Of a stretch of DNA of 64,000 nucleotides, positions 15,897-34,889 are shown piece by piece. Origin of the DNA: Candidatus Poribacteria bacterium (lineage in GTDB: Bacteria > Poribacteria > WGA-4E > PCPOR2b); assembly GCA_965207975.1 (NCBI GenBank), contig OZ242315.1, positions 5,975,197 to 6,039,196 of the forward strand, read 5' to 3'. Each line of letters starts with the position of its first letter. Positions within the stretch are counted from its first letter, which is position 1. The notes below the pieces were generated by a model. That model was not told where the DNA came from. It saw nothing but the letters and a program-made list of their open reading frames with translations, and made no database searches. A program made the position numbers and the translations under genes.

Positions 15897-17531
15897 TCAA
15901 GGTACTGTTGCTACAGCCCCAAACGCATCTGCAACCCACACCAGATCCAACATATTAACTACCCCATCTCCATTAATATCTGTTGCCAAATCCGGGCCTT
16001 CACTACCAAAAGCGGACGCAACCAAAACCAAATCTAGGAGATTCACGATGCCGTCGTCGTTGACATCCGTTGCAATCGGTGGTGGTTCTGTATCGGAGAT
16101 AACGTTAAAGATTACCGGATCATCTATAACCAATCCCGCAGCGGTTGCGGAAACGGTGTGTATTCCCAAATTCTCTCCTAGCGTGAGTGTGCTCTGCGCC
16201 CTGCCGTTTTGATGGGTGGTTGTGTGTGTGACACTGAGCGTTCCATCGCCGGCAGTTACGGCAAATGTCACCGGAACCCCCTCAAACGCGGAACCGTACT
16301 CATCTCGGATTTCAACGACAAATGGGTTCAGCATTACAGAGGGGGAACCGCGCTGATAACCTGATATTCCCAAGATTGTTGTTGGGGTACGGTGGCGAAA
16401 GCGGACGCTAACGCCTCTCGTTCTTAGGACCGGGATGTGTGTGTTAATCGATAGATAGCTCAGGGGATTTCCTCGCAGCGCAACCACGTCTTCAGCTCCC
16501 AATCCTGTATTTGCGACTAGGGTTGAGATATCCGATATGAAGTTATTATCAATCCACAGCCATTTAAGATTAGTCAATCTTGATAGAGGTGAAATGTCCG
16601 ATATGGAATTGTGCACGAGATCTAACTCCATCAGATTGATTAATCCTGCCACCGGCGAAATATCAGATATTAGGTTGCCTCCAAGATCTAGATCTATCAA
16701 GTTGGTCAAGTCTGATACCACTGAAATATCGGATATTGCGTTGCCTCCTAGGCGCAGTGTTGTCAGATTGGTCGAGCCTAACAACACTGAAATGTCGGAT
16801 ATTGCGTTGTCTCCAAGATTCAGTATCCTCAAGTTGGTCAAGCCTGATATTATCGAAATGTCGGATATTGTGTTGCCTCTTAGACGCAGTGTTGTCAGGT
16901 TGGTCAAGCCTGATACTATCGAAATGTCGGATATTGCGTTGTCTCCAAGATCTAACCGTCTCAGATTACTTAATTCTGCTATGGGTGAAATGTCTGATAT
17001 CATGTTGTATCCAAGATTCAGTTTTATCAGGTTAGTTAATCCCACTAAAGGTGACATATCGGATATAGAATTTTCCCAGAGATCCAGTTCTGTCAGGTCA
17101 GTCAATTTTGCTATAGGTGACATATCGGATATAGAGTTTTCTGAGAGAGATAGTCGTTTCAGATGAGTTAATTCCACTATAGGTGAAATGTCGGATATTG
17201 CGTTGCTTCCAAGTCCCAGTTGTGTAAGGTTAGTTAATCCCGCTAGAGGCGAAATATCGGATATAGAGTTGTTCCAGAGATCCAGTTCTGTCAGGTTGGT
17301 TGCAAACTCGAGCCCGGCCAAATCGCTTATGCTAGCTTCATCTGCTTCAAGGTAAGTCAAAGTTTCCATCTCTGCCACGGTGATTGTGGCACCTGATGTC
17401 TTACCGAAGGCGGCTTCGACGACAGCGCGGAGGTTGGGGTCGGGGATGTTCACTGTTTGTGCCGTTGTCGTCAACGGAATTGAGATGCAGATTAACAGGA
17501 AAAAAGTGAGACGAAACATTTGTGTTCTCAT
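15897..17531 (-). CDS. Secreted internalin-like leucine-rich-repeat protein with tandem dockerin-type Ca-binding repeats; a paralogue of 18982-21177 that lacks the T9SS C-terminal domain
   Basis: Signal peptide MRTQMFRLTFFLLICISIPLTTTAQ; about 15 22-residue LRR units (LTNLTxLxLxxNxISDISPLAGL); C-terminal VNDDGIVNLLDLVLVASAFG...DINGDGVVNMLDLVWVADAFG (dockerin type I pattern). Confidence 0.75.
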   Translation of the reverse strand: MRTQMFRLTFFLLICISIPLTTTAQTVNIPDPNLRAVVEAAFGKTSGATITVAEMETLTYLEADEASISDLAGLEFATNLTELDLWNNSISDISPLAGLTNLTQLGLGSNAISDISPIVELTHLKRLSLSENSISDMSPIAKLTDLTELDLWENSISDMSPLVGLTNLIKLNLGYNMISDISPIAELSNLRRLDLGDNAISDISIVSGLTNLTTLRLRGNTISDISIISGLTNLRILNLGDNAISDISVLLGSTNLTTLRLGGNAISDISVVSDLTNLIDLDLGGNLISDISPVAGLINLMELDLVHNSISDISPLSRLTNLKWLWIDNNFISDISTLVANTGLGAEDVVALRGNPLSYLSINTHIPVLRTRGVSVRFRHRTPTTILGISGYQRGSPSVMLNPFVVEIRDEYGSAFEGVPVTFAVTAGDGTLSVTHTTTHQNGRAQSTLTLGENLGIHTVSATAAGLVIDDPVIFNVISDTEPPPIATDVNDDGIVNLLDLVLVASAFGSEGPDLATDINGDGVVNMLDLVWVADAFGAVATVP

Positions 17532-17776: not shown

Positions 17777-17861
17777 AACTCACCTAACCCACGGTCAACA
17801 TCCCTGATAAAAATCGGGGGAACAAACCTTAATGGGGAGATTGAAACTAAAACAGATAGCC

Positions 17862-18506
17862 ATGTTCACAGGAATTGTTGCGGAGTTGGGAAACGTGAGG
17901 GCCGTTCAGCGCGGTTCACAAGCGGGAGTGCTGACTATTGCAGCCGCAGAGGTGTTATCGGATGGGGTTGTCGGGGATAGCATTGCGATAGATGGGGTCT
18001 GTCTGACAATCACCAATCTGGGGCACGACAGTTTCACAGCAGATGTTTCTGCCGAGACGTTGCGGCGCACAACTTTAGGCTACCTCAAACCGGGCGATCC
18101 GGTCAATCTTGAGAACCCATTGCGCTTGGTAGATCGGTTGGGCGGGCATCTCGTTTTAGGGCATGTTGACGAGGTGGGGACCATCAGCGGTTGGCAGGAT
18201 GAAGGTACATCATCTTTAATGCGCGTCTCGATTTCTGAGGAGACAATGCGGTATGTGGTGTATAAGGGATCGATCTGTGTTGACGGTGTCAGTCTGACAA
18301 TCTCAAACCTGTTTGACGACGGTTTTGAGGTCGCACTTATTCCCCACACCAAAGAGGTCACGACGTTAGGGCATAAACGGGTCGGCGCGCATGTGAATAT
18401 TGAGGTGGATATATTAGGGCGTTATATTGAACGGTTGTTGACCTATCCGTCTAGCGAAGGATCATCAATTGATATGGACTTCTTAGCAAAGCACGGATAT
18501 ATTTGA
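17862..18506 (+). CDS. ribE: Riboflavin synthase alpha subunit
   Basis: MFTGIV... start; two lumazine-binding repeats (DSIAIDGVCLTI / GSICVDGVSLTI). The ORF-track start at 17832 is an upstream extension. Confidence 0.9.
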   Translation: MFTGIVAELGNVRAVQRGSQAGVLTIAAAEVLSDGVVGDSIAIDGVCLTITNLGHDSFTADVSAETLRRTTLGYLKPGDPVNLENPLRLVDRLGGHLVLGHVDEVGTISGWQDEGTSSLMRVSISEETMRYVVYKGSICVDGVSLTISNLFDDGFEVALIPHTKEVTTLGHKRVGAHVNIEVDILGRYIERLLTYPSSEGSSIDMDFLAKHGYI

Positions 18507-18981: not shown

Positions 18982-21177
18982 CTACTTGAGAATCGTCATC
19001 TTCCGTGTGGCAGAATAATCGCCCGCTGTAAGGGTGTAAAAGTAAGTGCCACTTGCCACAGGTTCGCCGAATTCATTTTTGCCATCCCAATAGGCGGCAC
19101 GGCTACGGGTCTGATATATACCTGCGGGCTGATGTCCGAAGGCTAACTGCCGAACTGCTTGTCCGCTTGTGTCGTAAATAGTCAAGGTGACATCTGCATC
19201 CTTTGCGAGATTATACGGTATCCACGTCTCTGGATTGAACGGATTCGGATAGTTGAGCAACAAAACAGTTTCTTTCGGTATCAGTGTTGCAAGAAGTTGC
19301 TCTAGAAACAAAATGCCTCTTAGAGACGTTGCATCTGTGAGGTCTAGTTGTTGTGCTTGGAAAAGCCACCACTTTACATCTGCTGCGATCAACATTTCAA
19401 GTGCTTGTGCCGACGGTGCGGCCTCCGCAGCTCCAAACGCATCCGCAACCCATACCAAATCCGAAATATTAACTACCCCATCTCCATTAACATCCGTTGC
19501 TATATCCGGGACCTTGCTCCCGAATGTGGACGCAACCAAAACCAAATCTAGAAGATTCACGACACCGTCGTCGTTGACATCCGTTGCAATCGGTGGTGGT
19601 TCTGTATCGGAGATAACGTTAAAGATTACTGGATCATCTATAACCCATCCCGCAGCGGTTGCAGAAACGGTGTGTATTCCCAAATTCTCTCCTAGTGTGA
19701 GCGTGCTCTGCGCCCTGCCGTTTTCGTCAGTAGTTGTGTGTGTGGCACTGAGTCTGCCGTCACCGGCAGTCACGGCAAACGTGACCGGAACCCCCCCAAA
19801 CGCAGAACCGTACTCATCTCGCACTTCAACGACAAATGGTTTCAGCGTTACAGAGGGGGAGCCGCGCTGGTAGCCTGAGATTTTCAAGATTGCCGAAGGG
19901 GTACGGTGGCGAAAAATTACCTTAACTCGTCTTTCTTTTAAAATTGGGATGTGTGTGTTAATCGATGGGTAGCTCAAGGGATTGCCTCGCAGCTCAACTT
20001 CATCTGCATACCCCAACCCTGTATTTGCTACCAACGCTGAGACATCCAATATAGAGTTATTCGCAAGGTATAACCATGTCAGATGAGTCAATCCTGTCAC
20101 AGCCGAAATATCAGATATGGAGTTATTCGCAAGGTATAACCATGTCAGATGAGTCAATCCCGCCACTGGTGAAATATCGGATATAGAGTTGCCTTCAAGA
20201 TCGAGATCTGTCAGATGAATCAATCCCACCACAGGCGAAATATCAGATATAGAATTGCCTCCCAGATATAGCAATGTCAGCTTGGTTAATCCGGCTGTCG
20301 CCGATATATCGGATACCGAGTTCTCCCCAAGATCTAGCTCTTTGAGGTCGGCTAATCCCATCACTGCTGATATATCCAACACTGCGTTGTCCCGAAGAGA
20401 CAACATGGTCAGGTTAGTCAATCCTGCTAGGGGCGAAATATCGGATATAGAGTTACCATCCAAATACAGCTGTGTCAAGCTGGTTAACTCTGCCGCAGCC
20501 GAAATATCTGCTATCAAGTTACTCCCCAAAAACAGCGATGTCAGATTAGTTAATCCCGCTAGGGGCGAAATATCGGATACCGAGTTCTTTGAAAGACGTA
20601 GTGCTATCAGGTTAGTCAACCCTGCTATGGGTAAAATATCGGGTATAGAGTTGTATCTTAAATCCAACTCTATCAGTTTGGTTAATCCCGCCACGGGCGA
20701 AATATCAGATATAGAGTTGCCTCCGAAGAATAACTTAGTCAGATTAGTTAATCCCACCACGGGCGAAATATCGGATATAGAGTTATCCCAAAGGTCTAGC
20801 CGTGTTAGATTAATCAACCCTGCTACAGGCGAAATATCGGATATAGCATTGCGTCCAAGAGATAGCTTTGTCAGGTTAGTTAATCCCGCCACGGGCGAAA
20901 TATCGGATATAGAGTTATCCCAAAGATACAGTCGTGTCAAATTAGTCGCGAACTCGAGTCCGGTCAAATCGCTTATGCTAGCGTCCTGTCCTTCAAGGCG
21001 GGTCAAAGTCCCCATCTCTGCTACAGTGATTGGGTCCCCCGATGCTTTACGGAGAGCGGATTCGATAACAGCGCGGAGGTTCGGGTCGGGAAGGTTTACC
21101 GTTTGCGCCCTTGTCGGCAACGGAATCGAGACGCAAATTAGCAGGAAAAAAGTGAGACGAAAAAATTGTGTTTTCAT
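18982..21177 (-). CDS. Secreted internalin-like LRR protein with dockerin-type repeats and a T9SS-type C-terminal sorting domain (Por_Secre_tail)
   Basis: Signal peptide MKTQFFRLTFFLLICVSIPLPTRAQ; about 17 LRR units; VNDDGVVNLLDLVLVASTFG...DVNGDGVVNISDLVWVADAFG; C-terminal LLLNYPNPFNPETWIPYNL...GTYFYTLTAGDYSATRKMTILK. Confidence 0.8.
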   Translation of the reverse strand: MKTQFFRLTFFLLICVSIPLPTRAQTVNLPDPNLRAVIESALRKASGDPITVAEMGTLTRLEGQDASISDLTGLEFATNLTRLYLWDNSISDISPVAGLTNLTKLSLGRNAISDISPVAGLINLTRLDLWDNSISDISPVVGLTNLTKLFFGGNSISDISPVAGLTKLIELDLRYNSIPDILPIAGLTNLIALRLSKNSVSDISPLAGLTNLTSLFLGSNLIADISAAAELTSLTQLYLDGNSISDISPLAGLTNLTMLSLRDNAVLDISAVMGLADLKELDLGENSVSDISATAGLTKLTLLYLGGNSISDISPVVGLIHLTDLDLEGNSISDISPVAGLTHLTWLYLANNSISDISAVTGLTHLTWLYLANNSILDVSALVANTGLGYADEVELRGNPLSYPSINTHIPILKERRVKVIFRHRTPSAILKISGYQRGSPSVTLKPFVVEVRDEYGSAFGGVPVTFAVTAGDGRLSATHTTTDENGRAQSTLTLGENLGIHTVSATAAGWVIDDPVIFNVISDTEPPPIATDVNDDGVVNLLDLVLVASTFGSKVPDIATDVNGDGVVNISDLVWVADAFGAAEAAPSAQALEMLIAADVKWWLFQAQQLDLTDATSLRGILFLEQLLATLIPKETVLLLNYPNPFNPETWIPYNLAKDADVTLTIYDTSGQAVRQLAFGHQPAGIYQTRSRAAYWDGKNEFGEPVASGTYFYTLTAGDYSATRKMTILK

Positions 21178-21257: not shown

Positions 21258-22167
21258 TATAGTAGACGCAAGAAATAACGGGACAATAGTTTAGAAGTAT
21301 GTTATCCTGTTTGCATTATGGCACATTCATCAGATTTACGCACACGCGTCCTTCAATTCATAGAAAATGGTGGCAGTAAAACAGAAGCGGCAAAACGGTT
21401 CAAAGTCGGTCGAACTGCGATTTACCGATGGCTCAATGACCCAGACCCACTCACACCGGGCAAACCGGGTCCCCGAAAACCGAGACTACTTGACCCAACG
21501 GCACTGGCTGAACATGTCAAGGCACACCCTGACCAAACCCTTAAAGAACGCGCCACACACTTTGGGGTTTCACCCGCCTGTGTCGGCTATGGACTCAAAA
21601 GACTCGGCTACACGCGTAAAAAAAAACGGTTGGATATAAGGAGCAATGTCCAGAAAAACGACAAGCCTATCAGGAGCAACTCGCAACGGCGAAAGCATCA
21701 GGCAAAACGCTGATTTACCTCGACGAGACCGGTTTTACAGATGAAACGTTTAGAAGTCATGGCTATGCCCCCCGGGGACAATGTGTCCAGGGGTTGATAC
21801 CCAGCCAAAAGACCCGCACCACCACTTTGATAGTGGCACAACTGAATAATAAGTTGATTGCCCCAAAGTTAATATCGGGCAGTTGTAATGCACAACGGTT
21901 TAATACATGGCTTGATGAAGCGTTATCGCCACATTTAGATGCCAACAGTCTCGTGATAATGGATAATGCACGCATTCACAAGACCACCGAGACCCAAGCA
22001 TTGATACAAGCCTGTGGTGCTAAGGTGTTATACTTGCCCCCGTATTCGCCGGATTATAATCCCGTTGAACAAAAGTTTGCCAATATAAAGAGAGTCCGGT
22101 CATACAATGCGGATAAGCCCATTGAGGAGATTATCAATATGTATCGTTAATTGTTAAATCTACTATA
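21258..22167 (+). mobile_element. IS630-family insertion sequence (about 910 bp) with imperfect terminal inverted repeats tatagtaga... / ...tctactata and flanking TA
   Basis: Left end ctaTAGTAGACGCAAGAAATAACG (21257-21280) against the reverse complement of the right end (22153-22177), about 18/25 matches; it interrupts the otherwise duplicated LRR upstream region. Confidence 0.55.
21318..22150 (+). CDS. IS630/Tc1-mariner-family DDE transposase, two frames joined by a -1 shift within the A9 run at 21618-21626 (programmed frameshift or pseudogene)
   Basis: N-terminal HTH part (frame 0, to 21713) plus C-terminal catalytic part in the -1 frame (open from 21620): YLDETGF ... IMDNARIHK ... LPPYSPDYNPVEQ (DDE triad context). 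Confidence 0.75.
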
Positions 22168-22416: not shown

Positions 22417-23013
22417 AACCACAGTTGCTGCTTCCGATACTGGAGGCTGAACCGGGGCTTATTTGCCTAGCAAACCCTCGTTATTTTTTCTATGGGAACG
22501 TGACTGAAAAGCTCGGTTTCTCTTGTGAATACGCAACTTAGGTTGTTATCATCGCAGACAAATGCAGTACTTTAACCCTCTGCGATTGTTAGCAACTTGT
22601 GTGCCATGCCTTTGTTAACAATGAGGAACGCAGTCAGAATGATCGGGAGATCCCTCGAACCGTCGAATTTCATCGTCAGATCCGAATAGGTATCGTTACA
22701 CACAACATACCCGTGAAGTTAAGGGTCTTGTTGTGGATTGGCACCCCATCCGGCTCATTGACACCTCTGGAACAATCTAGCCGTGACTACCCAGAAATCG
22801 GGCGCATCTCACTTGTACATGATTTGAAAATTGCCCGATACCGTGCGAACCAGTTGGTGCTTTTAACCTTAAGTGTGCGAAGTACAGATTAGATGACTGG
22901 TAGAGAGGTATGACTCGCGCCCGATGTCTGATTAGGGTCTATCAGTCTATATTCCCCAAGATCTGTAAATCCCATAGTGAATGAGTCGATTTGCTATCTT
23001 AATCGAAAAGATT

Positions 23014-24902: not shown

Positions 24903-25760
24903 ATGGCAGCCTTAGAAGAAATCAAAATTGGTAATGGGCGGATTATCAAAGGGGACTGTCTCTCAGTTATGGATAATTTTCCCGACAACCATTTTATGCT
25001 TGGGTTCACCTCGCCTCCCTACCTGAACGCGATCAATTACGAGGAGCATATTGAAAAACTGCACGGGGCCAAAGCACGATGGGAGCGGGAAGATATATCC
25101 TACGAGGAATATCGGCGTTTTCTGGAGAATCGGTTCAAGGCGTTGCTGCGAATTACAAAGCCGGGGGGACATAATGTCGTAAATATTGCACCGGTCCTAT
25201 GGAACGGTACGCGCACTGCCCTCCCTTTTCATTTTGTCAGCTGGCTTGAACAAATTGGGTGGCAATTCAAGGAGGATATTATCTGGGAAAAGCCGGTTGC
25301 GAGGGATAGGCGATCAGGGGTTTTGTTACAGCATCCCTATCCCGGATATTACTACCCTAGCTTGGTTGCCGAATATATTTTTGTCTTTCAGAAACCTGCC
25401 GATAAGAAAAGTCAGAACAACATTTACTGGAATAGAAGTGAGGAAGAGAAAACAAGGAATGCAATTGACCTCAAGGACTATCAAGGCGAGAAGAGCAAAA
25501 ACGTTTGGAAAATCCGTCCATTAGCCCCCCAAGAAAATTTGCATCCCTGTCCATTTCCGTTGGAACTCGCGGAACGGGTCGTCCAGTTTTACTCTTATAA
25601 GGGAGATTCGGTGATTGACATCTTTGCCGGAAGTGGACAGACAAATTGTGCCGCGGAGAAACTAGGTAGAGCGCATGTCGGCATTGAAACGCAACAGAAA
25701 TACATAGATTATGCGGTTGAACAGCTTCGTCCAATTGTTGATCAAGGACAGTTGTTTTAA
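24903..25760 (+). CDS. Beta-class DNA amino-methyltransferase (N6-adenine or N4-cytosine; N6_N4_Mtase fold), M1 of an M-R-M triplet
   Basis: Motif IV SPPY (FTSPPYLNAINYE) precedes motif I FxGxG (IDIFAGSGQT), the beta-class order; 22 bp after ribH. Confidence 0.85.
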   Translation: MAALEEIKIGNGRIIKGDCLSVMDNFPDNHFMLGFTSPPYLNAINYEEHIEKLHGAKARWEREDISYEEYRRFLENRFKALLRITKPGGHNVVNIAPVLWNGTRTALPFHFVSWLEQIGWQFKEDIIWEKPVARDRRSGVLLQHPYPGYYYPSLVAEYIFVFQKPADKKSQNNIYWNRSEEEKTRNAIDLKDYQGEKSKNVWKIRPLAPQENLHPCPFPLELAERVVQFYSYKGDSVIDIFAGSGQTNCAAEKLGRAHVGIETQQKYIDYAVEQLRPIVDQGQLF

Positions 25761-25787
25761 CCTTATTAGAGGTGTAACGAGAACCTG

Positions 25788-26849
25788 ATGGATATTTTCG
25801 CTAGGATCACTGGAGTAAAATATACCCCACTTCTGTGCAGCAAACTTAAATCTTTCAGCTATAAGGATTTTGACGCAACACTTTCAGACAAAGCAACTTT
25901 CATTCTACAGATTGATCCAACCAAGCAGATTGCTTTAAGCTGCTGGGTTTCACCAAAAAGGACACGGTCTTACCCGTATTCAAGGGTCTATGATACATTG
26001 GGCTTTTCTGGCAAGAAAGCAACAATAATTCCAATTTTGAAGGATGAGGGTAAACAGGGCGATCGAGACTTTCTCCAATGGGATACAATCTCTTTAATGA
26101 GTTTGTTGGGCGTTTACGTGATAATTGGCTACTATGCTGATGCTTCAAAAAGCACAAGATACACGCATAAAATCACGGGACAAAAGTTTAATTCAGAGCA
26201 CATCATGAGCGAAATTGATCGGTTGATGTCTTATCAATCCGATGCTCTGCATTGGAACATAACGCAAGTCGAAGGTATCGGCGAAATTGGTTCGCAAGCG
26301 TTGAACGCCTATTCGGTTATCTCTGAAAAACTAGACGTGGAAATGCACTCTTGGGAGTCTGCGGAACGTCGAATCAATATACTTCGTGAAGGTCAGGCAG
26401 AGTTTAAAACACTATCAAGGAACTTGGCAAGGCAGGCACAGGCAAGAGAGAGTATCACGACACAGCCCAAAGAGCACATAGAGGGAATCAAAGGGAAGCT
26501 AACCATCAAAAATTATCTTGGTGGCAATTATTATTTGACCTGTGATGAGGTTGAAATCCATGGGGAGGAAATCTATCTCGTTGAAGCGAAGCATACGAAC
26601 AAAGATGAGCTGCCTTCCCTCGGTGATATAAAAGATGGTTTGGTGAAAATGATACTATTTACAAACTTGGAAAACCTAAAAGTTGATGAGAGAGATTACA
26701 ATCCTGTGCCAGTTTTGAAGTTGACGACGGGTGAGGGATTCAGTCTTAACTCGCTTAACCGCCCGCAGCAAAACCGTCTTACGAATCTAAAGCAGGAAGC
26801 CGAAACCAATGGATTTCGGATTATGATCAATGATGGATTTTTCACGTAA
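25788..26849 (+). CDS. Candidate restriction endonuclease (putative PD-(D/E)xK) sandwiched between the two methyltransferases
   Basis: Position between M1 and M2 with 28-bp and 12-bp gaps; a possible D...ExK in ...TCDEVEIHGEEIYLVEAKH...; no family was recognised. Confidence 0.4.
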   Translation: MDIFARITGVKYTPLLCSKLKSFSYKDFDATLSDKATFILQIDPTKQIALSCWVSPKRTRSYPYSRVYDTLGFSGKKATIIPILKDEGKQGDRDFLQWDTISLMSLLGVYVIIGYYADASKSTRYTHKITGQKFNSEHIMSEIDRLMSYQSDALHWNITQVEGIGEIGSQALNAYSVISEKLDVEMHSWESAERRINILREGQAEFKTLSRNLARQAQARESITTQPKEHIEGIKGKLTIKNYLGGNYYLTCDEVEIHGEEIYLVEAKHTNKDELPSLGDIKDGLVKMILFTNLENLKVDERDYNPVPVLKLTTGEGFSLNSLNRPQQNRLTNLKQEAETNGFRIMINDGFFT

Positions 26850-26860
26850 TGGGATAGAGT

Positions 26861-27754
26861 ATGAAAGCAACTGTGCTGCGTGGAGATTGTGCGTCGCTAT
26901 TAGACCGACAGAACGCCACTTTTGAAGATGTTGATCTCACCTTTCTCGATCCGCCTTTTAATCAAGATAAAGGCTACAACGAGTGGGATGATAACTTGCC
27001 TGAAGCACAGTATTGGAAGTGGATGGACGACGTGTGCACAAAGATTTACGACCGAACTGCTTCGGGTGGTGCAATCTATTTCATGCAGCGCGAGAAGAAA
27101 ACCGAGGCTGTGCTACGGTGTTTACGCGAGTCTGGATGGACGTTTCAAAACCTGATTATTTGGAAAAAGAAAACGTCCGCTGTCCCCGGGATGAATCGTT
27201 TTGGCAAACATTACCAGATCATTGCGTTTGCAACGAAAGGGGAGCGTCCACGGATATTTCATCGCTTGCGGATCAATCCACCACTCCCTGCGGGCTACAA
27301 ATATGAACGGGAAAATGGCATGTTTGTCACCGACGTGTGGGACGACATTCGTGAGTTGACATCGGGCTATTTTGCTGGAGATGAGGCACTGCGGGATGCA
27401 GAGGGAAATCGCTTGCACAAGCAACAGGCACCGATTCAACTTCTCCTTCGGATAATCCTCTCTTCGACAAATCCCGGCGATGTTGTATTAGATCCATTTG
27501 CGGGATCGGGGACAACGTTGGTCGTTGCAGAACAGTTAAGGCGAAAATCAATTGGTATTGAACTCGATAAGGTCAACATCGAAATTATTCGGAAAAGACT
27601 TGCTGAAAAAAGAGAAGCCGATGATATTTCAGGTTCATTCAACGATTATGAATGCACACCGGACTTAGAAGCCATTTGGGGCCGGGCTAAATCGAGAGCC
27701 GCGGCGACTCTCAAACAGGGAAAACTTTTTGAGTCAAATCAAAATCGTGTTTGA
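26861..27754 (+). CDS. Beta-class DNA amino-methyltransferase, M2
   Basis: Motif IV DPPF (LTFLDPPFNQD) then motif I (VLDPFAGSGTTLVVAEQL). Confidence 0.85.
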   Translation: MKATVLRGDCASLLDRQNATFEDVDLTFLDPPFNQDKGYNEWDDNLPEAQYWKWMDDVCTKIYDRTASGGAIYFMQREKKTEAVLRCLRESGWTFQNLIIWKKKTSAVPGMNRFGKHYQIIAFATKGERPRIFHRLRINPPLPAGYKYERENGMFVTDVWDDIRELTSGYFAGDEALRDAEGNRLHKQQAPIQLLLRIILSSTNPGDVVLDPFAGSGTTLVVAEQLRRKSIGIELDKVNIEIIRKRLAEKREADDISGSFNDYECTPDLEAIWGRAKSRAAATLKQGKLFESNQNRV

Positions 27755-28299: not shown

Positions 28300-29705
28300 A
28301 TCAAAAATTCCTTTAGGGGTAAAACCCAAAGGTTTACCTTTGGGATACCCCCCTGCTTTAGCATTTTTTAATTTTGCAGTTAAAATATGATATGTTTGTC
28401 TTGGGTCTGGTGGGAGCGTTTGCCCCCTATCGCCCGATAGGATCTCTCGCGTGCTTGTGAAACAGGATATAAAGGACAAAGCCGACTCCGATGAAAACCT
28501 ACAAGTTCAAGATGTATAGCAATCACGGGAATCGTGAGTTGCACAGGACGATAGAGGGTCATGCTGATGTGTGGAATCACTGTGTCGCGCTTCAGCGTCG
28601 GTACTATTGCCTCTATGGCAAGTATATCAGCAAGTTTCGTTTGATAAATCATATATCGAAGCTGAAACGACTTGCTAAGTTTGCTCATTGGAATCAGCTA
28701 CCCAGCCAATCCATTCAAGACGTGGCAGCACGGATTGACAAAGGGTATAAGGCGATGTTTGAAGCGCGTGCGAAAGGCAAGGCGTGGGGGAGCCCTCGTT
28801 TTAAGCCACGCGGCAAATACAAGTCATTCACGCTGCTTCAAGCGGGTTGGCAATTGCTTACCAGTAACAAGATTCGTATTGGCAAGAGTGTCTACCAATA
28901 CTTTAAGTCTCGTGATATTCGTGGCACTCCGAAACGTTGCACAATCAAACGGGACGCTATCGGCGATGTCTATATCTGCATTCTCACCGACTATGTAGAA
29001 CCTGACCTGAATCGAGTCATGACGGGTAAAATCGCGGGGTTTGATTTCGGTCTGAAAAGGTATCTCACGGGTCACAATGGACACGACATAGAATCACCTC
29101 AGTTTTTCAAACGCAGCCTCAACGCTATCAAACGTGCAAACCGCGCGCATTCACGAACCAAGAAAAAGTCAAATAATCGGGAAAGAACAAGGCTCGATTT
29201 AGCACGGAAGCACCGTAAGATTGAACGACAACGAGAGGACTTCCACTGGAAGTTGGCACACCAACTGACCGATGAATACGACGAGATACGGCTCGAAGAT
29301 TTGAACCTGCAAGGTATGAAGTCGCTATGGGGACGCAAAGTCAGTGACTTAGGGTTTGCCGATTTTGTCAAAAAGTTGGTGTATATCGCTAAGAAAAAAG
29401 GTGTCAAACTCACCTTCATTGATAAGTGGCATCCAACGAGTAAAACTTGTTCGGTCTGCGGTGTGGTCAATGAAGCGTTGAATCTGCGTGATAGAACTTG
29501 GCAGTGTAACGATTGTGGCACGGTGCATGACCGGGACCGCAACGCTGCGATTAACATTTTTCGGGTTGGGGCGTCAACCCATGAAGGAGAGGACGTAAGT
29601 CCCGATTCGTCGGGCAATCCTTGTTGATAGCACAATTCGACTCCTATTAGCAACGGAATCGTAAGAATCCCAAGCCTTTAGGTTTGGGAGTACGTCAATA
29701 ACGTG
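28300..29705 (+). mobile_element. IS200/IS605-family element carrying only tnpB (IS1341-like), with subterminal LE/RE-like hairpins; the boundaries are approximate
   Basis: Hairpin cccaaaggtttacctttggg (28325-28344) upstream and the similar cccaagcctttaggtttggg (29669-29688) downstream of tnpB; no tnpA was found. Confidence 0.5.
28491..29627 (+). CDS. tnpB: TnpB (OrfB_IS605) RuvC-like RNA-guided endonuclease family protein
   Basis: RuvC-I IAGFDFGLK, RuvC-II region ...EIRLEDLNLQGMK, zinc finger CSVCG...CNDCG, RuvC-III HDRDRNAAINI. Confidence 0.85.
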   Translation: MKTYKFKMYSNHGNRELHRTIEGHADVWNHCVALQRRYYCLYGKYISKFRLINHISKLKRLAKFAHWNQLPSQSIQDVAARIDKGYKAMFEARAKGKAWGSPRFKPRGKYKSFTLLQAGWQLLTSNKIRIGKSVYQYFKSRDIRGTPKRCTIKRDAIGDVYICILTDYVEPDLNRVMTGKIAGFDFGLKRYLTGHNGHDIESPQFFKRSLNAIKRANRAHSRTKKKSNNRERTRLDLARKHRKIERQREDFHWKLAHQLTDEYDEIRLEDLNLQGMKSLWGRKVSDLGFADFVKKLVYIAKKKGVKLTFIDKWHPTSKTCSVCGVVNEALNLRDRTWQCNDCGTVHDRDRNAAINIFRVGASTHEGEDVSPDSSGNPC

Positions 29706-29713
29706 AGTTTTCA

Positions 29714-30322
29714 ATGATTGCAATTATCGACTACGGTGCGGGCAACCTGACGAGCGTTGAACGCGCTGTCAAATATTTAGGCTACGACGGAAGAATCACC
29801 GCCGACCCCCAGATCATTTTAGGTGCGGAGAAAGTTATCTTTCCCGGCGTGGGTGCGGCGCGGGCAACGATGGATAACCTCAACACGGCTGGGCTTGCGG
29901 CGGTTTTATGGGAGGTCTACAAATCGGGTAAGCCGATGTTGGGAATCTGTATCGGTATACAGATCCTGTTTGAGCATAGCGAGGAGGAGGATACTAACTG
30001 TCTCGGCATCCTGCCCGGGATTGTCAAAAAGTATGACGCCTCTCCGATCCAAAAAGTGCCGCAGATCGGTTGGAATGAGGTGTATCAGACGCAGGTGCAC
30101 CCAATTTTTCAAGATGTTCCGAATCCCGCTCATTTCTATTTTGTGAACTCGTACTACCCAATCCCGCAAGACGATTCATACATCGTCGGCAAGACCACTT
30201 ATGGCGTTGAATTTTCGAGTGTCGTCGCCCATCAGAACCTGATTGCGACGCAGTTCCATCTGGAGAAGAGTGGTCGGATCGGACTGAAGATGCTTGATAA
30301 TTTCTTGCGGAATGGACAGTAA
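29714..30322 (+). CDS. hisH: Imidazole glycerol phosphate synthase glutamine amidotransferase subunit
   Basis: MIAIIDYGAGNLTSVERAV..., catalytic GICIGIQIL and QFHLEKSG; there is no adjacent hisF or hisA. Confidence 0.85.
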   Translation: MIAIIDYGAGNLTSVERAVKYLGYDGRITADPQIILGAEKVIFPGVGAARATMDNLNTAGLAAVLWEVYKSGKPMLGICIGIQILFEHSEEEDTNCLGILPGIVKKYDASPIQKVPQIGWNEVYQTQVHPIFQDVPNPAHFYFVNSYYPIPQDDSYIVGKTTYGVEFSSVVAHQNLIATQFHLEKSGRIGLKMLDNFLRNGQ

Positions 30323-30354: not shown

Positions 30355-31887
30355 TTGCTCATGCTAACTTTCTTCCTGATATTCGTTGTTCTACTGATTA
30401 ACCTGTTCGTTTACGGCTTGGATAGCCCACAGAACTACGGTGTTGTCTCGCATCTGTACTATGGGGTCATCATCCTCGCGGGGATATACGACAATCGTCG
30501 TGGGCAGTATCTACTGCTTGCGTGCACGACGCTAGCCAATTGGATACATGCTGGGATTTATTATGAGCAGATCCATTTGGGCGTGGTTGCAATTTTATAT
30601 CCTATCATCGCGTATTTCATTGTTCGCACCATCCAGTTATTCAAGGCACAACGCGCCACTACGGAAGCGCAGCTTCAGCAGATAGATCAAGCCAACACGG
30701 ATTTGGAAAAACGGGTGCGAGATCTATCTACCCTTTTTGAAGTTGGTGATACAGCAAACACCGCTCTGGAATTAGATGAACTGTTCCAAAAGATTATCAA
30801 GACGCTTGCCAACCGGATGGGAGTATACCGGGGTGCCCTGAGAATTTGGAAGGGTGGCGAGCCGGTCAAAGAGGTCGAGGCAGTTTTTGGGTTGACAGAG
30901 GCGGAGCTCCGGCGCGGCACGGACAGTCAAATTGATCTTATCCAACAACAGGTACTCCAATCTGGGCAACCGATTGGTGTGCCGCACAGTCGCACGCCCC
31001 TTCAGCAGATGGAGTTTCCAAATGCGAAATCGGTGCAGTCTAAAGATCCGATAGCTTTCTGGTGTGTCCCGGTGGTGGTGGATGAACAGGTAATTGGTAC
31101 GCTGACAATTGATAAAGCATCGGACGAATTTTCGATTGAGGACGATATTCGTATTTTGACGATTATCGCTGCCATTGTGGCACAGCGCGTTAAGATTCAG
31201 CAGATGATCGACTCGCTGGTGCAATCCGAACGACTCGCAACGCTTGGCAAACTTGCGACGACGGTTGCCCACGAGGTGAGAAATCCACTGGGCGGGATCC
31301 GCGGTGCAGCGCAGCTGCTCCAATTTGAAGGCGAATCGAATTCAGAGATTCAAGAGTATATTCAGGTCATTATCAGAGAGGTGGATCGGTTGAATCGTGT
31401 GGTTGAGCAGCTACTTGTGTCCGGCAACCCACGGACCGCTGGTGTCAAGTTAGGTAGTATTAGCGACTTAATCGACAATAGCCTCTCAATCTGTCAGCCG
31501 GAGTTAGATCGGGACAATATCCGTGTTGAAAAGTGTTTTGCTGACGATTGTCCGTTGATTTCCGTGAATGACGACGGGATAACGCAGGTATTGCTGAACC
31601 TATTTCGTAACGCAATTGAATCGATGGAAGATGGGGGTATCTTGACGATTCAAACCACCTATAATTCCGCGATTCAGATTGTTCAAATTTATATCACGGA
31701 TACCGGGCGGGGTATACCGCCGGATGTTGCCTCACGTTTGTTCGATCCGTTTTACACAACGAAACAGAAAGGGACGGGGCTTGGGCTTGCGATTAGCCAG
31801 CAAATCGTTGAGGAGCACGGTGGCACTATTGAAGTTGATATAACAGAAACTCCAGGGGCAACGTTTGTTGTTACATTGCTGGTTTGA
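30355..31887 (+). CDS. Sensor histidine kinase (N-terminal TM segments, GAF-like domain, HisKA, HATPase_c)
   Basis: H-box ATTVAHEVRNPLGGI; N/G boxes ...LLNLFRNAIES..., DTGRGIP, GTGLGLAISQQIVEEHGG. Confidence 0.8.
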   Translation: MLMLTFFLIFVVLLINLFVYGLDSPQNYGVVSHLYYGVIILAGIYDNRRGQYLLLACTTLANWIHAGIYYEQIHLGVVAILYPIIAYFIVRTIQLFKAQRATTEAQLQQIDQANTDLEKRVRDLSTLFEVGDTANTALELDELFQKIIKTLANRMGVYRGALRIWKGGEPVKEVEAVFGLTEAELRRGTDSQIDLIQQQVLQSGQPIGVPHSRTPLQQMEFPNAKSVQSKDPIAFWCVPVVVDEQVIGTLTIDKASDEFSIEDDIRILTIIAAIVAQRVKIQQMIDSLVQSERLATLGKLATTVAHEVRNPLGGIRGAAQLLQFEGESNSEIQEYIQVIIREVDRLNRVVEQLLVSGNPRTAGVKLGSISDLIDNSLSICQPELDRDNIRVEKCFADDCPLISVNDDGITQVLLNLFRNAIESMEDGGILTIQTTYNSAIQIVQIYITDTGRGIPPDVASRLFDPFYTTKQKGTGLGLAISQQIVEEHGGTIEVDITETPGATFVVTLLV

Positions 31888-31896
31888 GCAAAGTCA

Positions 31897-32786
31897 GTGA
31901 ATACAGATATGGCGAATGAAAGAAACCTCTCATTAACTGAAGAAGAAATTCGCGAGTTAATCGCTAATGAATTTCCGCGCCTAATAACCCAAAATCCCGA
32001 GATTCGTTATGAGCTGATCGGTGTTATGTCGGAGACTTTTGCCAAAAAAGAGGATATAACAGCGATTTTGAACGAGCTCAGGCAGATGCGTGAGGAATCT
32101 GAACGCCAGCGGGTTGAATTCCGGCAGGAGATGCAAGTTCTACGCGAGGAGTCCGAGCAGCGATGGGCTGAATTCCGGCAGGAGATGGAATCCCTACGTG
32201 CAGAATCCAATCGGTTGCGCGAGGAGTCCGAGCAGCGATGGGTTGAATTCCGGGAACAGATGGAAGCCTTACGCGAGGAGTCTAATCGGTTGCGTGAGGA
32301 GTCCGAGCAGCGTTCCGGCAGGAGATAAAGGACCTACGCGAAGAGTCCAGCGCGTCACGTGCATATCTAGATGATGAATTAAGGCGATTTCACCATACCG
32401 TTCAAGGCTTGGGCGCACGATGGGGATTGCAGTCTGAAGAAGCATTCCGCAGTGGGCTCGCTGCAATTTTGACGGATGAACTCGGTTTCCAGGTGGAACG
32501 GTACGAAGGTTATGACGATTCTGGATCGGTTTTCGGACAGCCGGAACAGGTGGAGATGGATGTAATCATCCGGAACAGTTTAGTTATTGCAATTGAAATT
32601 AAATCATCGGTCAGCCGCAGTGACCTTGCCCTTTTTCAAAGGAAAGTGGCATTCTTTGAGCAGACGGAAAGTGTAACGGTAAATCGAAAATTCTTCATAT
32701 CTCCATTTGTTGATCCCAACGCTGTTGGATTGGCGGCACGGATGGGTATCGAACTCTACACCCACAGCTTAGATATTATAATTTAG
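31897..32786 (+). CDS. Coiled-coil repeat protein with a C-terminal DUF3782-like PD-(D/E)xK domain, interrupted by a frameshift (two ORFs: 31897-32328 and 32298/32409-32786)
   Basis: 75-bp (25-aa) tandem repeats LREESEQRWxEFRxQMExLRxESNR; the third copy lacks 10 nt (atgggctgaa) at 32312/32313, which shifts the frame. The downstream frame is open from 32298 and encodes ...EMDVIIRNSLVIAIEIKSS... (an E/D...ExK-like motif). Confidence 0.5.
32146..32324 (+). repeat. 75-bp tandem repeat x2.4 inside the coiled-coil gene; the third unit carries a 10-nt deletion
   Basis: 32146-32220 and 32221-32295 are about 90% identical; 32296-32324 is a truncated third copy. Confidence 0.8.
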
Positions 32787-32857
32787 ACACCGTGATTGGT
32801 ATTGGTGCTGCTTTTGTATCCGCCAGTTTTGGTGAGGACAACTATCATTAGATCTCT

Positions 32858-34312
32858 ATGACACACACAATTCTTATTGCTGACGACGACGATAGCATCC
32901 GCTTTGTTTTGGAGAAGGCTCTTCAGAAGGAAGGGTATCACACATTTTCCGCGCGAAACGGGAAAGAAACGGTTGATCTTCTCCGCTCAGAAGCGATTGA
33001 CACGATTTTCCTCGATATTTTTATGCCTGATGTCAACGGGTTAGATCTGATTGAAGAGCTTCAGGAGATCAATAAAGCTGCATCAATTATTATTATCACC
33101 GCTCACGGGACAACGCAAACGGCGATTGAAGCTGCAAAGCGACACGCTTATGACTACGTGACCAAGCCTTTTGATCTCCAAGAGATTATACCTTTGGTGT
33201 CCCGTGCGGTATATGCTGCGGATCAAACAAAGGCGGCACTGGCGGAAGATTCGCGACCAGAAGATAGTGTTGTGCCCCAAAACGGGGAGGAGGTGGGCAC
33301 TCAGATTGTAGGTGAGAGCGATGCGATGCACACAATCTACTTGACCATCGGACGGGCGGCGATCAGCGACGAAACGGTTCTCATTATGGGAGAGAGTGGC
33401 ACAGGTAAGGAATCAATCGCCAAAGCGATTCACCAGAATAGCAAGAGAGCGGAAGAGGAGTTTGTGGTGGTGGATTGTAGCGCGATTCCCTCGGACTTGA
33501 TTGAAAGTGCACTCTTTGGGCATGTTAAAGGGGCGTATACGGGTGCCGATACGGCACGCCAGGGGAAATTTGAGCAGGCGGACCGGGGAACGATTTTTCT
33601 GGACGAGGTTGGTGAATTGCCGATAGAGGTGCAGATGAAACTGCTGCGTGTTCTGCAAGAGCGGGAGGTCGAGCCGATTGGGTCAAATGAGATTCGCAAG
33701 GTTGATGTGCGGGTGGTTGCTGCGACAAATCGACGGCTTGATTTGGCAATTCAGGACGGATCGTTTCGGGAAGATCTGTTTTATCGGCTCAATGTGGTGC
33801 CAATCTTTTTGCCTCCGTTGCGTGAGCGGAAAGAGGATATCCCTGATCTCGTGGATTTTTTTATGTCCCGTTATGCTCAGGACTACGGTCAGCCTAAAGG
33901 GACAATTTCGCCGGAGGCGTTCAAGCTGCTGATGGTTTATGATTGGCCCGGAAACGTCCGCGAACTTGAAAACAGCTTGAAGCGTGCGCTCGTTATGTGT
34001 GCTGGCCAGGTCCTCCTCCTGGAACACTTCCCGGAGCTTTCTGGCAGCGCAGTTCCCTCTGTTACGAAGGCACCGACAGGGTTCGAGAGTCGCCTTGCTT
34101 CGCTTATGTCAGAGCGTGTGGATGAACTTATCGAATCTGGCACCTCCTCGGGATCACTTCATGCAGAGATTCGTGTTGCTGTTGAGAAGCCGCTTTTTGA
34201 GTCTATTCTCCAGCGGACCAGCTGGAATCGTAGGAAGGCGGCTGAGATTCTTGGAATTAATCGGAATACACTCCATTCTAAGATGGAGGAGTATGGGATT
34301 CAAAGGCGTTAG
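32858..34312 (+). CDS. Sigma-54-dependent response regulator (NtrC/Fis family: REC, AAA+ sigma-54 activator, HTH)
   Basis: REC domain ILIADDDDSIRFVL...DIFMPDVNGLDL; Walker A GESGTGKE; GAFTGA-like GAYTGA; C-terminal HTH AAEILGINRNTLHSKMEEYGI. Confidence 0.85.
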   Translation: MTHTILIADDDDSIRFVLEKALQKEGYHTFSARNGKETVDLLRSEAIDTIFLDIFMPDVNGLDLIEELQEINKAASIIIITAHGTTQTAIEAAKRHAYDYVTKPFDLQEIIPLVSRAVYAADQTKAALAEDSRPEDSVVPQNGEEVGTQIVGESDAMHTIYLTIGRAAISDETVLIMGESGTGKESIAKAIHQNSKRAEEEFVVVDCSAIPSDLIESALFGHVKGAYTGADTARQGKFEQADRGTIFLDEVGELPIEVQMKLLRVLQEREVEPIGSNEIRKVDVRVVAATNRRLDLAIQDGSFREDLFYRLNVVPIFLPPLRERKEDIPDLVDFFMSRYAQDYGQPKGTISPEAFKLLMVYDWPGNVRELENSLKRALVMCAGQVLLLEHFPELSGSAVPSVTKAPTGFESRLASLMSERVDELIESGTSSGSLHAEIRVAVEKPLFESILQRTSWNRRKAAEILGINRNTLHSKMEEYGIQRR

Positions 34313-34326
34313 GTGAGCGTGCGTCT

Positions 34327-34611
34327 ATGGATATTGGAAAGGTCATCGGGACCATCGTCGCAACTCGAAAAGATCCGAGTTTGGTCGGTTATCGTCTGCT
34401 GGTCGTACAACCCCTTGATGCGGAGGGCGAGTCGGTCGGCGATCCGGTCACAGCTGTTGATATACAGGGTGCAGCCGGGTATGGTGAATTGGTCTATTTC
34501 GTTACCGGTGGAGATGCCGCATTTGTGTCAGCGGAACGCGCAATGCCTGTTGATGTCGCTGTAGTAGGCATTGTTGATTCAATCACCGTAACTGAAGAAG
34601 CGGAGGAATGA
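34327..34611 (+). CDS. Bacterial microcompartment vertex (pentamer) protein, EutN/CcmL/PduN family
   Basis: MDIGKVIGTIVATRKDPSLVGYRLLVVQPLDAEGESVGDPVTAVDIQGAAGYGELVYFVTGG...PVDVAVVGIVDSI matches the PduN/EutN consensus (M.IA.VIG.VV.T.K...L.G.KLLLV...VA.D.VGAG..E.V...G...P.D..IVGIVD); 14 bp after the regulator gene. Confidence 0.8.
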   Translation: MDIGKVIGTIVATRKDPSLVGYRLLVVQPLDAEGESVGDPVTAVDIQGAAGYGELVYFVTGGDAAFVSAERAMPVDVAVVGIVDSITVTEEAEE

Positions 34612-34889
34612 TGTACATCGCAAAGGTCATTGGCAAAGTGGTTTCGGTCATTAAGCATCCTGCCTATGACAATCGAACCCTTCTGCTTGTTCAACCGTTG
34701 AACCTGAAATCGCAGTTGGTGCGAACACCAACAATTGCTGTTGACTATGTTGGGGCAGGAGAGAACGATATAGTACTTGTTGGAGCGGGACCGGGCGTTG
34801 CGCAGGAGGTTTTTGAACTTGAAACGGCTCCTATAAGGGAACTAGTTATGGGAATTATCGATCGGTTTGATGTGTCGAATGAAGCGTGA
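34608..34889 (+). CDS. Second BMC vertex protein, EutN/CcmL/PduN family (a paralogue of the preceding gene)
   Basis: MMYIAKVIGKVVSVIKHPAYDNRTLLLVQPL...IAVDYVGAGENDIVLVGAGPG...IRELVMGIIDRF; ATGA overlap with the upstream gene. Confidence 0.8.
   Translation: MMYIAKVIGKVVSVIKHPAYDNRTLLLVQPLNLKSQLVRTPTIAVDYVGAGENDIVLVGAGPGVAQEVFELETAPIRELVMGIIDRFDVSNEA

Follow-up and report, generated by a model that had tools for sequence, protein, structure and literature searches.

The window analysed here is a stretch of 64,000 nucleotides (nt) from a Candidatus Poribacteria bacterium (contig OZ242315.1, positions 5,975,197 to 6,039,196); all positions given below without a locus name are counted from its first letter. 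Within it, a sensor histidine kinase gene and a gene for a sigma-54-dependent response regulator are separated by a third gene, referred to here as X, which encodes a coiled-coil stalk and a nuclease-like tail and whose reading frame is broken by the absence of 10 nt in the stalk. X is the local orthologue of a Poribacteria accessory gene and belongs to the uncharacterised DUF3782/PDDEXK_10 (COG5493) family. The frame break is read, with moderate confidence, as a genuine and recent loss-of-function deletion, which would make the window copy a pseudogene.

The conserved backbone hisH-kinase-(X)-regulator opens with the glutamine amidotransferase gene hisH (29714-30322, + strand; Pfam GATase), whose position is constant in all Poribacteria loci, including those without X. 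The kinase (30355-31887, +) has a hydrophobic N-terminus and, as the preliminary description of this DNA had it, a GAF domain followed by HisKA and HATPase_c (Pfam). Its NCBIfam matches are AtoS/ZraS-like, all under the equivalog cut-offs, and it is 89-93% identical to its orthologues in the related loci L001-L007. The regulator (32858-34312, +) consists of a receiver, a sigma-54 AAA+ domain and HTH_8 (Pfam). Its description as NtrC-type holds at the level of the NtrC family; it is not NtrC proper, scoring 486 bits against an NCBIfam equivalog cut-off of 558.6. Together the two genes have the composition of an NtrB/NtrC-type pair, a HisKA-HATPase_c kinase adjoining a receiver, sigma-54 AAA+ and HTH_8 regulator. 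The regulator is unbroken in 12 of the 12 related loci examined, and the window copy shares 99% identity with P0121, which is encoded on an independent TARA scaffold, L094, the closest relative. The spacers flanking X are short, 22 nt on the kinase side and 71 nt on the regulator side.

X occupies two reading frames on the + strand. The 5' fragment, comprising head and stalk, runs from 31909 to 32328 (alternative GTG start at 31897); its translation ends after 143 codons from the GTG start or 139 from the ATG start, at a premature TAA at 32326-32328. The 3' fragment lies in the other frame at 32313-32786, is open from 32298 and ends with a TAG stop at 32784-32786. The only in-frame starts in this frame are TTG codons at 32409 and 32427, and no Shine-Dalgarno-like sequence accompanies them. 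The head (31909-32088, +) is a non-repetitive segment of about 57-60 amino acids (aa), LTEEEIRELIANEFPRLITQNPEIRYELIGVMSETFAKKEDITAILNEL, which is near-identical in more than 80 orthologues and helical in the AlphaFold2 model of the orthologue P0027.

The tail had been described as DUF3782-like with a PD-(D/E)xK core, and hidden Markov model (HMM) searches agree. Pfam DUF3782 (PF12644) matches at 32331-32543 (+; 75.7 bits against a cut-off of 24.4; E-value 3.2e-21), across the end of the stalk and the GLGARWG..SEEAFR helix. It is followed by the nuclease-fold domain PDDEXK_10 (PF07788, formerly DUF1626) at 32544-32753 (+; 67.4 bits against a cut-off of 21.2; 1e-18). The predicted active-site codons span 32436-32603 (+): E at 32436-32438, D at 32559-32561 and E-x-K at 32595-32603. 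The 3' fragment retains all four predicted residues, as E (SEEAF), D (VEMDV) and E-I-K (IEIKS), and the core quoted in the preliminary description, EMDVIIRNSLVIAIEIK, includes the conserved D and ExK. When 14 diverse family members are aligned, E, D and E are invariant and the fourth position is K or R.

The AlphaFold2 model of P0027, a protein of 309 aa, has an unbroken helix at residues 30-188, followed by a nuclease domain with the elements H194-207, E213-220, E230-239, E243-248, H254-271, E277-281, H287-295 and E298-301. A Foldseek search of its C-terminal domain against the PDB gives NucS/EndoMS, AF1548, MspJI and Cas4 as top matches; with the Pfam matches, this gives the tail PD-(D/E)xK relatives by both sequence profile and fold. 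A PDB sequence search returned a marginal Cas4 match alone (E-value 0.25), and NCBIfam has no model matching X. Going by this predicted fold and the active-site residues, the intact protein would be a Mg2+-dependent nuclease held at a set distance from the head.

The stalk is encoded by a coiled-coil repeat array at 32089-32336 (+) with modules of 54 nt (32089-32142), 54 nt (32143-32196), 21 nt (32197-32217), 54 nt (32218-32271), 21 nt (32272-32292) and 44 nt (32293-32336), the last being a 54-nt module minus 10 nt. TRF reports a period of 75 nt with 2.3 copies and 87% matches at 32143-32312, and apart from the 66-nt repeats of leucine-rich-repeat (LRR) genes, the array is the sole tandem repeat of the window. 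The repeats had been taken for perfect 25-aa units making up the N-terminal two thirds of the protein. At 87% matches they are not perfect; the real units are of 54 and 21 nt, and they amount to about one third of the repaired 295-aa protein, whose first 57 aa are the non-repetitive head.

In the orthologues the same two modules, REESEQRWxEFRQEMxxL (18 aa, 54 nt) and REESNRL (7 aa, 21 nt), vary in number and order, and the head and the C-terminal part of about 145 residues are near-uniform. At least 34 module architectures are found among 79 full-length orthologue representatives, with protein lengths of 234-385 aa. All 79 are single open reading frames (ORFs) that parse into 18- and 7-residue modules. 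The hydrophobic spacing, read from the sequences, is 4-4-3-4-3 in the 18-aa module (a hendecad plus a heptad, 7+11) and 4-3 in the 7-aa module (a heptad); 25 aa correspond to 7+7+11. Since whole modules are 54 or 21 nt long and built of heptads and hendecads, a stalk that gains or loses one stays in frame and in coiled-coil register. In other phyla, 65 of 75 family members likewise have a stalk encoded by tandem repeats at the DNA level, and in 64 of these 65 the period is a multiple of 3 (21, 33, 42, 54, 63, 75, 96, 117 and others), as sums of 7- and 11-residue stretches would give. Building the stalk from repeats is thus common to the family as a whole.

The preliminary description placed the frame break at 32312, in a third repeat 10 nt shorter than the others; alignment with three orthologous loci confirms this. 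The missing 10 nt correspond to ATGGGTTGAA of the preceding unit and are absent between 32312 and 32313, which brings the stop codon at 32326-32328 into frame. At the deletion junction (+ strand; aligned with L001, L002, L003 and L094), GAGCAGCG is followed directly by TTCCGG, and the junction sequence GAGCAGCGTTCCGGCAGGAGATAAAGG is unique to the window among all fetched loci. The junction shows no microhomology. The region 32050-32400 contains no homopolymer of 5 nt or longer and no dinucleotide run, and the 31 nt that both frames share (32298-32328) contain no slippery heptamer. In the closest relative, L094, the frame of X is open through an array of different module order.

Several observations support a real lesion. 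The window is tiled by 52 ORFs of at least 150 aa, 13 of the 13 neighbouring genes compared with L001 are full length, and the deletion is clean. Inactivated copies of X also occur in other genomes. In the chromosome-level genome L008 (5870-7600), X has decayed: it carries an early frameshift, the whole array has been lost, and the head is joined straight to the GLGVRWG helix; a broken DDE_Tnp_1 transposase gene lies between X and the regulator. In addition, one identical frameshifted allele, in which SLFKERLHSLNRQKM is followed by a stop codon, is common to three clusters (P0097, P0098 and P0113) drawn from ENA and JGI assemblies.

The strongest competitor of a genuine deletion is that X is intact in the organism and that the 10-nt gap arose in assembly or consensus polishing, when the differing module orders of co-existing strains were merged. 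This is a serious though less probable explanation, and several points in its favour weigh directly against a real lesion. Firstly, the gap sits in a tandem array, and even the closest relative, with a regulator 99% identical, has its modules in another order; such differences between near-identical strains make mixed populations plausible, and a mixed-strain consensus is prone to fail at such a place. Secondly, four other long-read metagenome contigs have odd lesions, with scrambled or shortened modules, in the corresponding array. L093 lacks 10 nt of a 21-nt unit, leaving 11 nt; L092 has gained 2 nt and L002 5 nt; and L003 (about 5960-6030) has units of 25 and 44 nt (+4/-10), a hybrid that resembles a mis-merged consensus and whose 44-nt unit lacks 10 nt at the window's position, between GAGCAG and TTCCGG. 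These four contigs were picked for truncated-looking proteins and cannot serve as an unbiased rate of disruption. Thirdly, at least two of the assemblies have other broken, frameshifted genes, namely the kinase in L002 and ribBA in L003. Finally, the 3' fragment in the window is otherwise free of defects, and its protein sequence is 96% identical to that of P0027; with this part undamaged, there is no sign of decay beyond the single lesion.

Other evidence speaks against such an artefact. No other housekeeping gene is broken in the rest of the window. A clean loss of 10 nt is neither the usual homopolymer error nor the collapse of a whole unit, and the junction sequence must have been present in some reads. 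The alleles of L008 and of P0097, P0098 and P0113 also indicate that genuine inactivation of X takes place. As a separate observation, a loss of 10 nt in the array is found in three independent assemblies (the window, L003 and L093), which may reflect a shared mutational mechanism or a consensus artefact.

The distribution of X is that of an accessory gene. The protein with the 10 nt restored, used as a query, retrieves 407 relatives; the best 110 or so cluster representatives are 69-90% identical to it (best local alignment), and those named by source are Candidatus Poribacteria. Clade gene order was judged on every fetched locus with enough flank. The order ribBA-ribH-(methylases)-hisH-kinase-X-regulator-EutN-EutN-rhomboid is found in L001-L008, L092 and L093, and L094, a short scaffold that begins inside X, has X-regulator-EutN-EutN-rhomboid. 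A sister Poribacteria lineage (L095-L097) has ribBA-ribH-hisH-kinase-regulator, with a 71-nt kinase-regulator spacer, no X and no EutN genes; its regulator is 68% identical to that of the window. The earlier reading that X splits a kinase-regulator pair is borne out by this lineage, in which the orthologous pair is directly adjacent, and X is therefore a lineage-specific insertion into an older operon. No inverted or direct repeats of the kind that mark mobile-element ends are found at the X boundaries, and the exact insertion point cannot be mapped, since too little similarity is left between the X-regulator spacer and the spacer that separates kinase and regulator in the sister lineage.

In the divergent Poribacteria locus L088, a 50%-identical X lies directly upstream of the orthologous regulator (receiver domain 75% identical), and the kinase is not upstream. 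In L088 (1-7330), the genes ahead of X encode a large N6/N4 methylase, an MNT/HEPN pair and a ResIII helicase, and the open frame of X extends upstream of the called start without an obvious ATG.

Outside Poribacteria, the family is represented by at least 539 loci in species-representative genomes (Chloroflexota, Cyanobacteria, Desulfobacterota, Gammaproteobacteria, archaea and others). Among 75 of these loci (L009-L083), a kinase or regulator context is found in almost none and there is no conserved neighbour; the commonest immediate neighbours are Uma2-family putative restriction endonucleases, with 6 of 127 neighbours. A reading of the family as part of defence islands was dropped, since defence genes are not enriched among these neighbours. 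L058 carries two family copies in tandem. A scan of metagenome contigs returned three relatives, all distant, and looking up the exact products of the window's regulator gene and 3' ORF gave no recorded match. In L089-L091, a 45%-identical X homologue adjoins a bacterial microcompartment shell gene, an aldehyde dehydrogenase gene and ThuA, possibly a recurrent closeness to microcompartment genes.

The history of X also differs from that of its neighbours in synonymous divergence (dS). The window X (31909-32783) was compared with L001-L008 and L092-L094, giving 12 genomes. Median pairwise dS is 0.29 for the C-terminal part of X and 0.26 for its N-terminal head, against 0.67 for hisH, 0.69 for the kinase, 0.61 for the regulator, 0.56-0.57 for the EutN genes and 0.51 for the rhomboid gene. 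The dS of X is thus about half that of the six neighbouring genes; the nonsynonymous divergence (dN) is similar, and dN/dS is about 0.19 for X and 0.03-0.11 for the neighbours. With a ratio of about 0.2, X is kept under purifying selection. The C-terminal part is 88-96% identical in protein to its orthologues, equal to the kinase and regulator. GC content at third codon positions is 0.43-0.45 in X, slightly under the 0.53 of kinase and regulator.

The divergence of X does not follow that of its flanks. With L008 left out, the dS values of X (0.12-0.43) and of the regulator (0.04-1.32) are uncorrelated (Spearman 0.18, p 0.18), whereas regulator dS and EutN plus rhomboid dS correlate with a rho of 0.68. 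Constraint on synonymous sites as a cause of the low dS was rejected, since X is at least as diverged as its flanks when the most similar genomes are paired: between L003 and L004, dS is 0.13 for the kinase, 0.20 for the regulator and 0.21-0.23 for X, and between the window and L094 it is 0.04 for the regulator and 0.19-0.21 for X. In the latter pair, identity jumps from roughly 94% to 100% close to the 3' end of X. As the synonymous divergence of X is shallow and decoupled from the flanks, the data fit homologous recombination that has passed X alleles from genome to genome, or a gene-specific sweep. That recombination is drawn from just 12 genomes and about 200 codons counts against pressing this further.

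The following account would bring these results together. X entered an older operon of hisH, kinase and regulator, directly behind the stop codon of the kinase, and has since been retained by purifying selection, with alleles probably traded between genomes through recombination. The encoded protein combines a small head of helices, an extended and probably parallel coiled-coil stalk and, at the C-terminus, a NucS-like PD-(D/E)XK domain with an unbroken E...D...ExK signature. It is likely to form a coiled-coil oligomer that sets metal-dependent nuclease domains at a distance from the head defined by the modules; gain or loss of 54-nt and 21-nt units alters the stalk length, with frame and register undisturbed. 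Going by the 22-nt and 71-nt spacers, X is probably co-transcribed with kinase and regulator. In the window, one 54-nt unit has lost 10 nt, which leaves the nuclease domain without a start. X would then be dispensable accessory cargo, newly inactivated in this genome, and not a reversible switch.

The position of X allows for another function. X could serve the kinase/sigma-54 regulator system as a third component, perhaps as a partner of the enhancer-binding regulator that acts on DNA, in which case the loss of X would rewire signalling. Its fixed place between kinase and regulator in all clade genomes, the short spacers consistent with co-transcription, the purifying selection, and the X-regulator adjacency kept in the divergent L088 without a kinase upstream all agree with such a role. 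However, the sister lineage has the pair without X, and in other phyla the family shows no association with two-component genes. X alleles also seem to recombine separately from the flanking genes, and several genomes have lost X or carry a broken copy, the regulator being intact in every case. The backbone has also taken up two LRR genes, a split IS630 element, a type II restriction-modification system and a TnpB gene, which fits X as accessory cargo at an insertion-prone backbone. A third component is therefore unlikely; the adjacency in L088 makes a functional tie of X to the regulator possible, but it is not favoured.

A related and somewhat more doubtful proposal is that X is a semi-mobile, recombining nuclease cassette with a stalk of rapidly varying length, tied to the regulator at a fixed site in the sigma-54 operon, and that its repeated, independent knock-outs represent conflict-driven or contingency-like turnover and not noise. 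It is based on the X-regulator adjacency that holds down to 50% X identity, on the EutN pair found in every X locus, and on the three separate 10-nt losses in the array.

Slippage-based on/off switching, which the preliminary description offered as one explanation, would make the array a contingency locus in which slipped-strand mispairing toggles X. The length of the array is clearly unstable between genomes, and lesions that break the frame have struck it repeatedly, with 10 nt lost in three cases (the window, L003 and L093). As in contingency loci, a coding repeat tract varies in length between strains and the frame break lies inside it. Unlike contingency loci, X has units that are multiples of three (54 and 21 nt), so slippage preserves the frame, and 79 of 79 full-length representatives are single open frames. 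The missing 10 nt are not a unit, no flanking microhomology or short simple-sequence tract is available for reversion, and the lesions in other genomes differ in position and kind. With the closest relative intact as well, slippage switching is not supported and phase variation of X is very improbable.

Deliberate expression of both frames, by programmed ribosomal frameshifting or as a separate stalk protein and nuclease, is hardly to be expected either: coiled-coil-only bacterial proteins of DUF3782 type are known (Tcar0761; PMC4786415) and the four net frame-breaking lesions (the window, L002, L092 and L093) all need a -1 shift, but the overlap of the frames has no slippery heptamer, the downstream TTG starts have no ribosome-binding site and lie inside the conserved GLGARWG helix, and the orthologues, including the closest relative, are single ORFs.

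The family has been catalogued since 2007 and never characterised; X is a further member of it, and the frame break itself is ordinary. A 2007 profile study predicted that DUF1626/PDDEXK_10 (COG5493) proteins are PD-(D/E)XK nucleases preceded by a coiled coil at the N-terminus; it independently linked them to DUF91/NucS and noted that many archaeal members have threonine at the position of the motif III lysine (Knizewski, PMC1913061). A 2012 survey listed it as a family of unknown function whose patchy distribution points to multiple horizontal gene transfer events (Steczkiewicz 2012, PMC3424549). DUF3782 was later described as the coiled-coil stalk of a prokaryotic endonuclease family, with nonad beta-layers in crenarchaeal members and none in bacterial ones (Hartmann et al. 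2016, PMC4786415). The papers found contain no experimental characterisation of any member.

X agrees with the family in scoring above both HMM thresholds, in the E...D...(D/E)xK signature, in the coiled-coil stalk and nuclease fold of the P0027 model, and in the patchy, solitary genomic distribution. In contrast to the family at large, the Poribacteria subfamily occupies one fixed site in a two-component operon; it is also distinct in its stalk, whose 18-aa and 7-aa modules vary very widely in copy number, and in keeping K or R at the motif III lysine. The window copy differs further in being frameshifted.

The best structural matches are NucS/EndoMS (PDB 2VLD, 5GKE) and AF1548 (1Y88), with Foldseek E-values of 2.5e-4 to 7e-4 and probability 1.0. 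Sequence identity to NucS/EndoMS is 15-17% only, over an alignment limited to the C-terminal domain (about 115-120 columns). NucS combines an N-terminal beta-barrel domain for DNA binding and dimerisation with its C-terminal nuclease; X instead has a helical head and a coiled coil of about 160 residues. A mismatch or flap specificity is not supported. With RmuC the likeness is one of architecture: RmuC has a long coiled coil followed by a C-terminal PD-(D/E)XK nuclease, together with an N-terminal membrane anchor and a conserved chromosomal role. The Pfam search turned up no sequence or HMM match to RmuC.

The crenarchaeal alpha/beta coiled coil and Tcar0761 (PDB 5APZ) share with X the Pfam stalk family and a stalk built of tandem repeats. 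The nonad/hexad inserts of Tcar0761 type, [aliphatic]-A-T-K-[polar]-[D/E] ('MATKDD'), are found neither in repaired X nor in its orthologues. With no nonads and a spacing of 7 and 11, X agrees with the remark on bacterial members in PMC4786415.

The PADLOC model of C3a181 (PDLC01085) matches P0027 (3.9e-13) and the 3' fragment of the window (9.6e-12). C3a181 was proposed as a candidate type III CRISPR-associated accessory cluster with three occurrences and a doubtful 'diadenylate cyclase' label (Shah et al. 2018, PMC6546367). X is not adjacent to cas genes: within about 8 kb there are rib, restriction-modification, TnpB, hisH, kinase, regulator, EutN and rhomboid genes, and a Cas-model match occurs in 1 of 127 neighbours of family members in other phyla.

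The orthologues of X form a natural series in which head and nuclease domain are constant across dozens of stalk lengths; together with the knock-outs and the sister lineage that has no X, this makes questions of stalk length and function testable. The hypervariable in-register stalk and the shallow, decoupled allele pool are the points that deserve follow-up. An accessory gene that stays at a fixed site in a signalling operon while its alleles move bears on how accessory genes are exchanged in sponge-symbiont genomes. Furthermore, coding tandem arrays in metagenome assemblies appear as a hot spot for frame-breaking lesions, which should not be taken for phase variation without reads.

Directly 3' of the regulator lie two EutN/CcmL genes for microcompartment vertex proteins (34327-34889, +; Pfam). 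This pair is present in every locus that carries X and is not in the X-less sister lineage. A promoter-like site, TCTACA-16-TATAAT (10/12), is found at 32755-32782 (+) within the 3' end of X; the regulator starts 76 nt further downstream. It is weak; promoter and terminator scans are at background, and the number of promoter-like sites is not above the shuffled expectation. A search of the window for sigma-54 promoters gave 3 matches against 2.1 expected, none of them near X. An exact match to the sigma-54 -24/-12 consensus, TGGCACACAAGTTGCT, lies upstream of ribBA at 22591-22606 (-), where 1.9 kb are devoid of long ORFs; the total for the window is not above chance.

The content of the ribH-hisH interval differs among genomes. 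In the window it includes a type II restriction-modification cassette of methylase, endonuclease and methylase at 24903-27754 (+; PADLOC REase_II 4.6e-91), the endonuclease of which is not in L001. Between this cassette and hisH there is a TnpB / IS605 OrfB gene (28491-29627, +) with OrfB_IS605 and Cas12f1-like TNB domains, which is not at the corresponding position in L001-L003.

Further upstream, an IS630-family transposase is split into two ORFs, HTH_Tnp_IS630 at 21318-21713 (+) and DDE_3 at 21794-22150 (+), and is either degenerate or dependent on frameshifting. Two proteins with leucine-rich repeats, Big_1 and dockerin domains are encoded at 15897-17531 (-) and 18982-21177 (-); they carry the 66-nt tandem repeats and are of a eukaryote-like repeat type. 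Their genes are placed around riboflavin synthase (17832-18506) and upstream of ribBA, and in the sister lineage these rib genes are contiguous.

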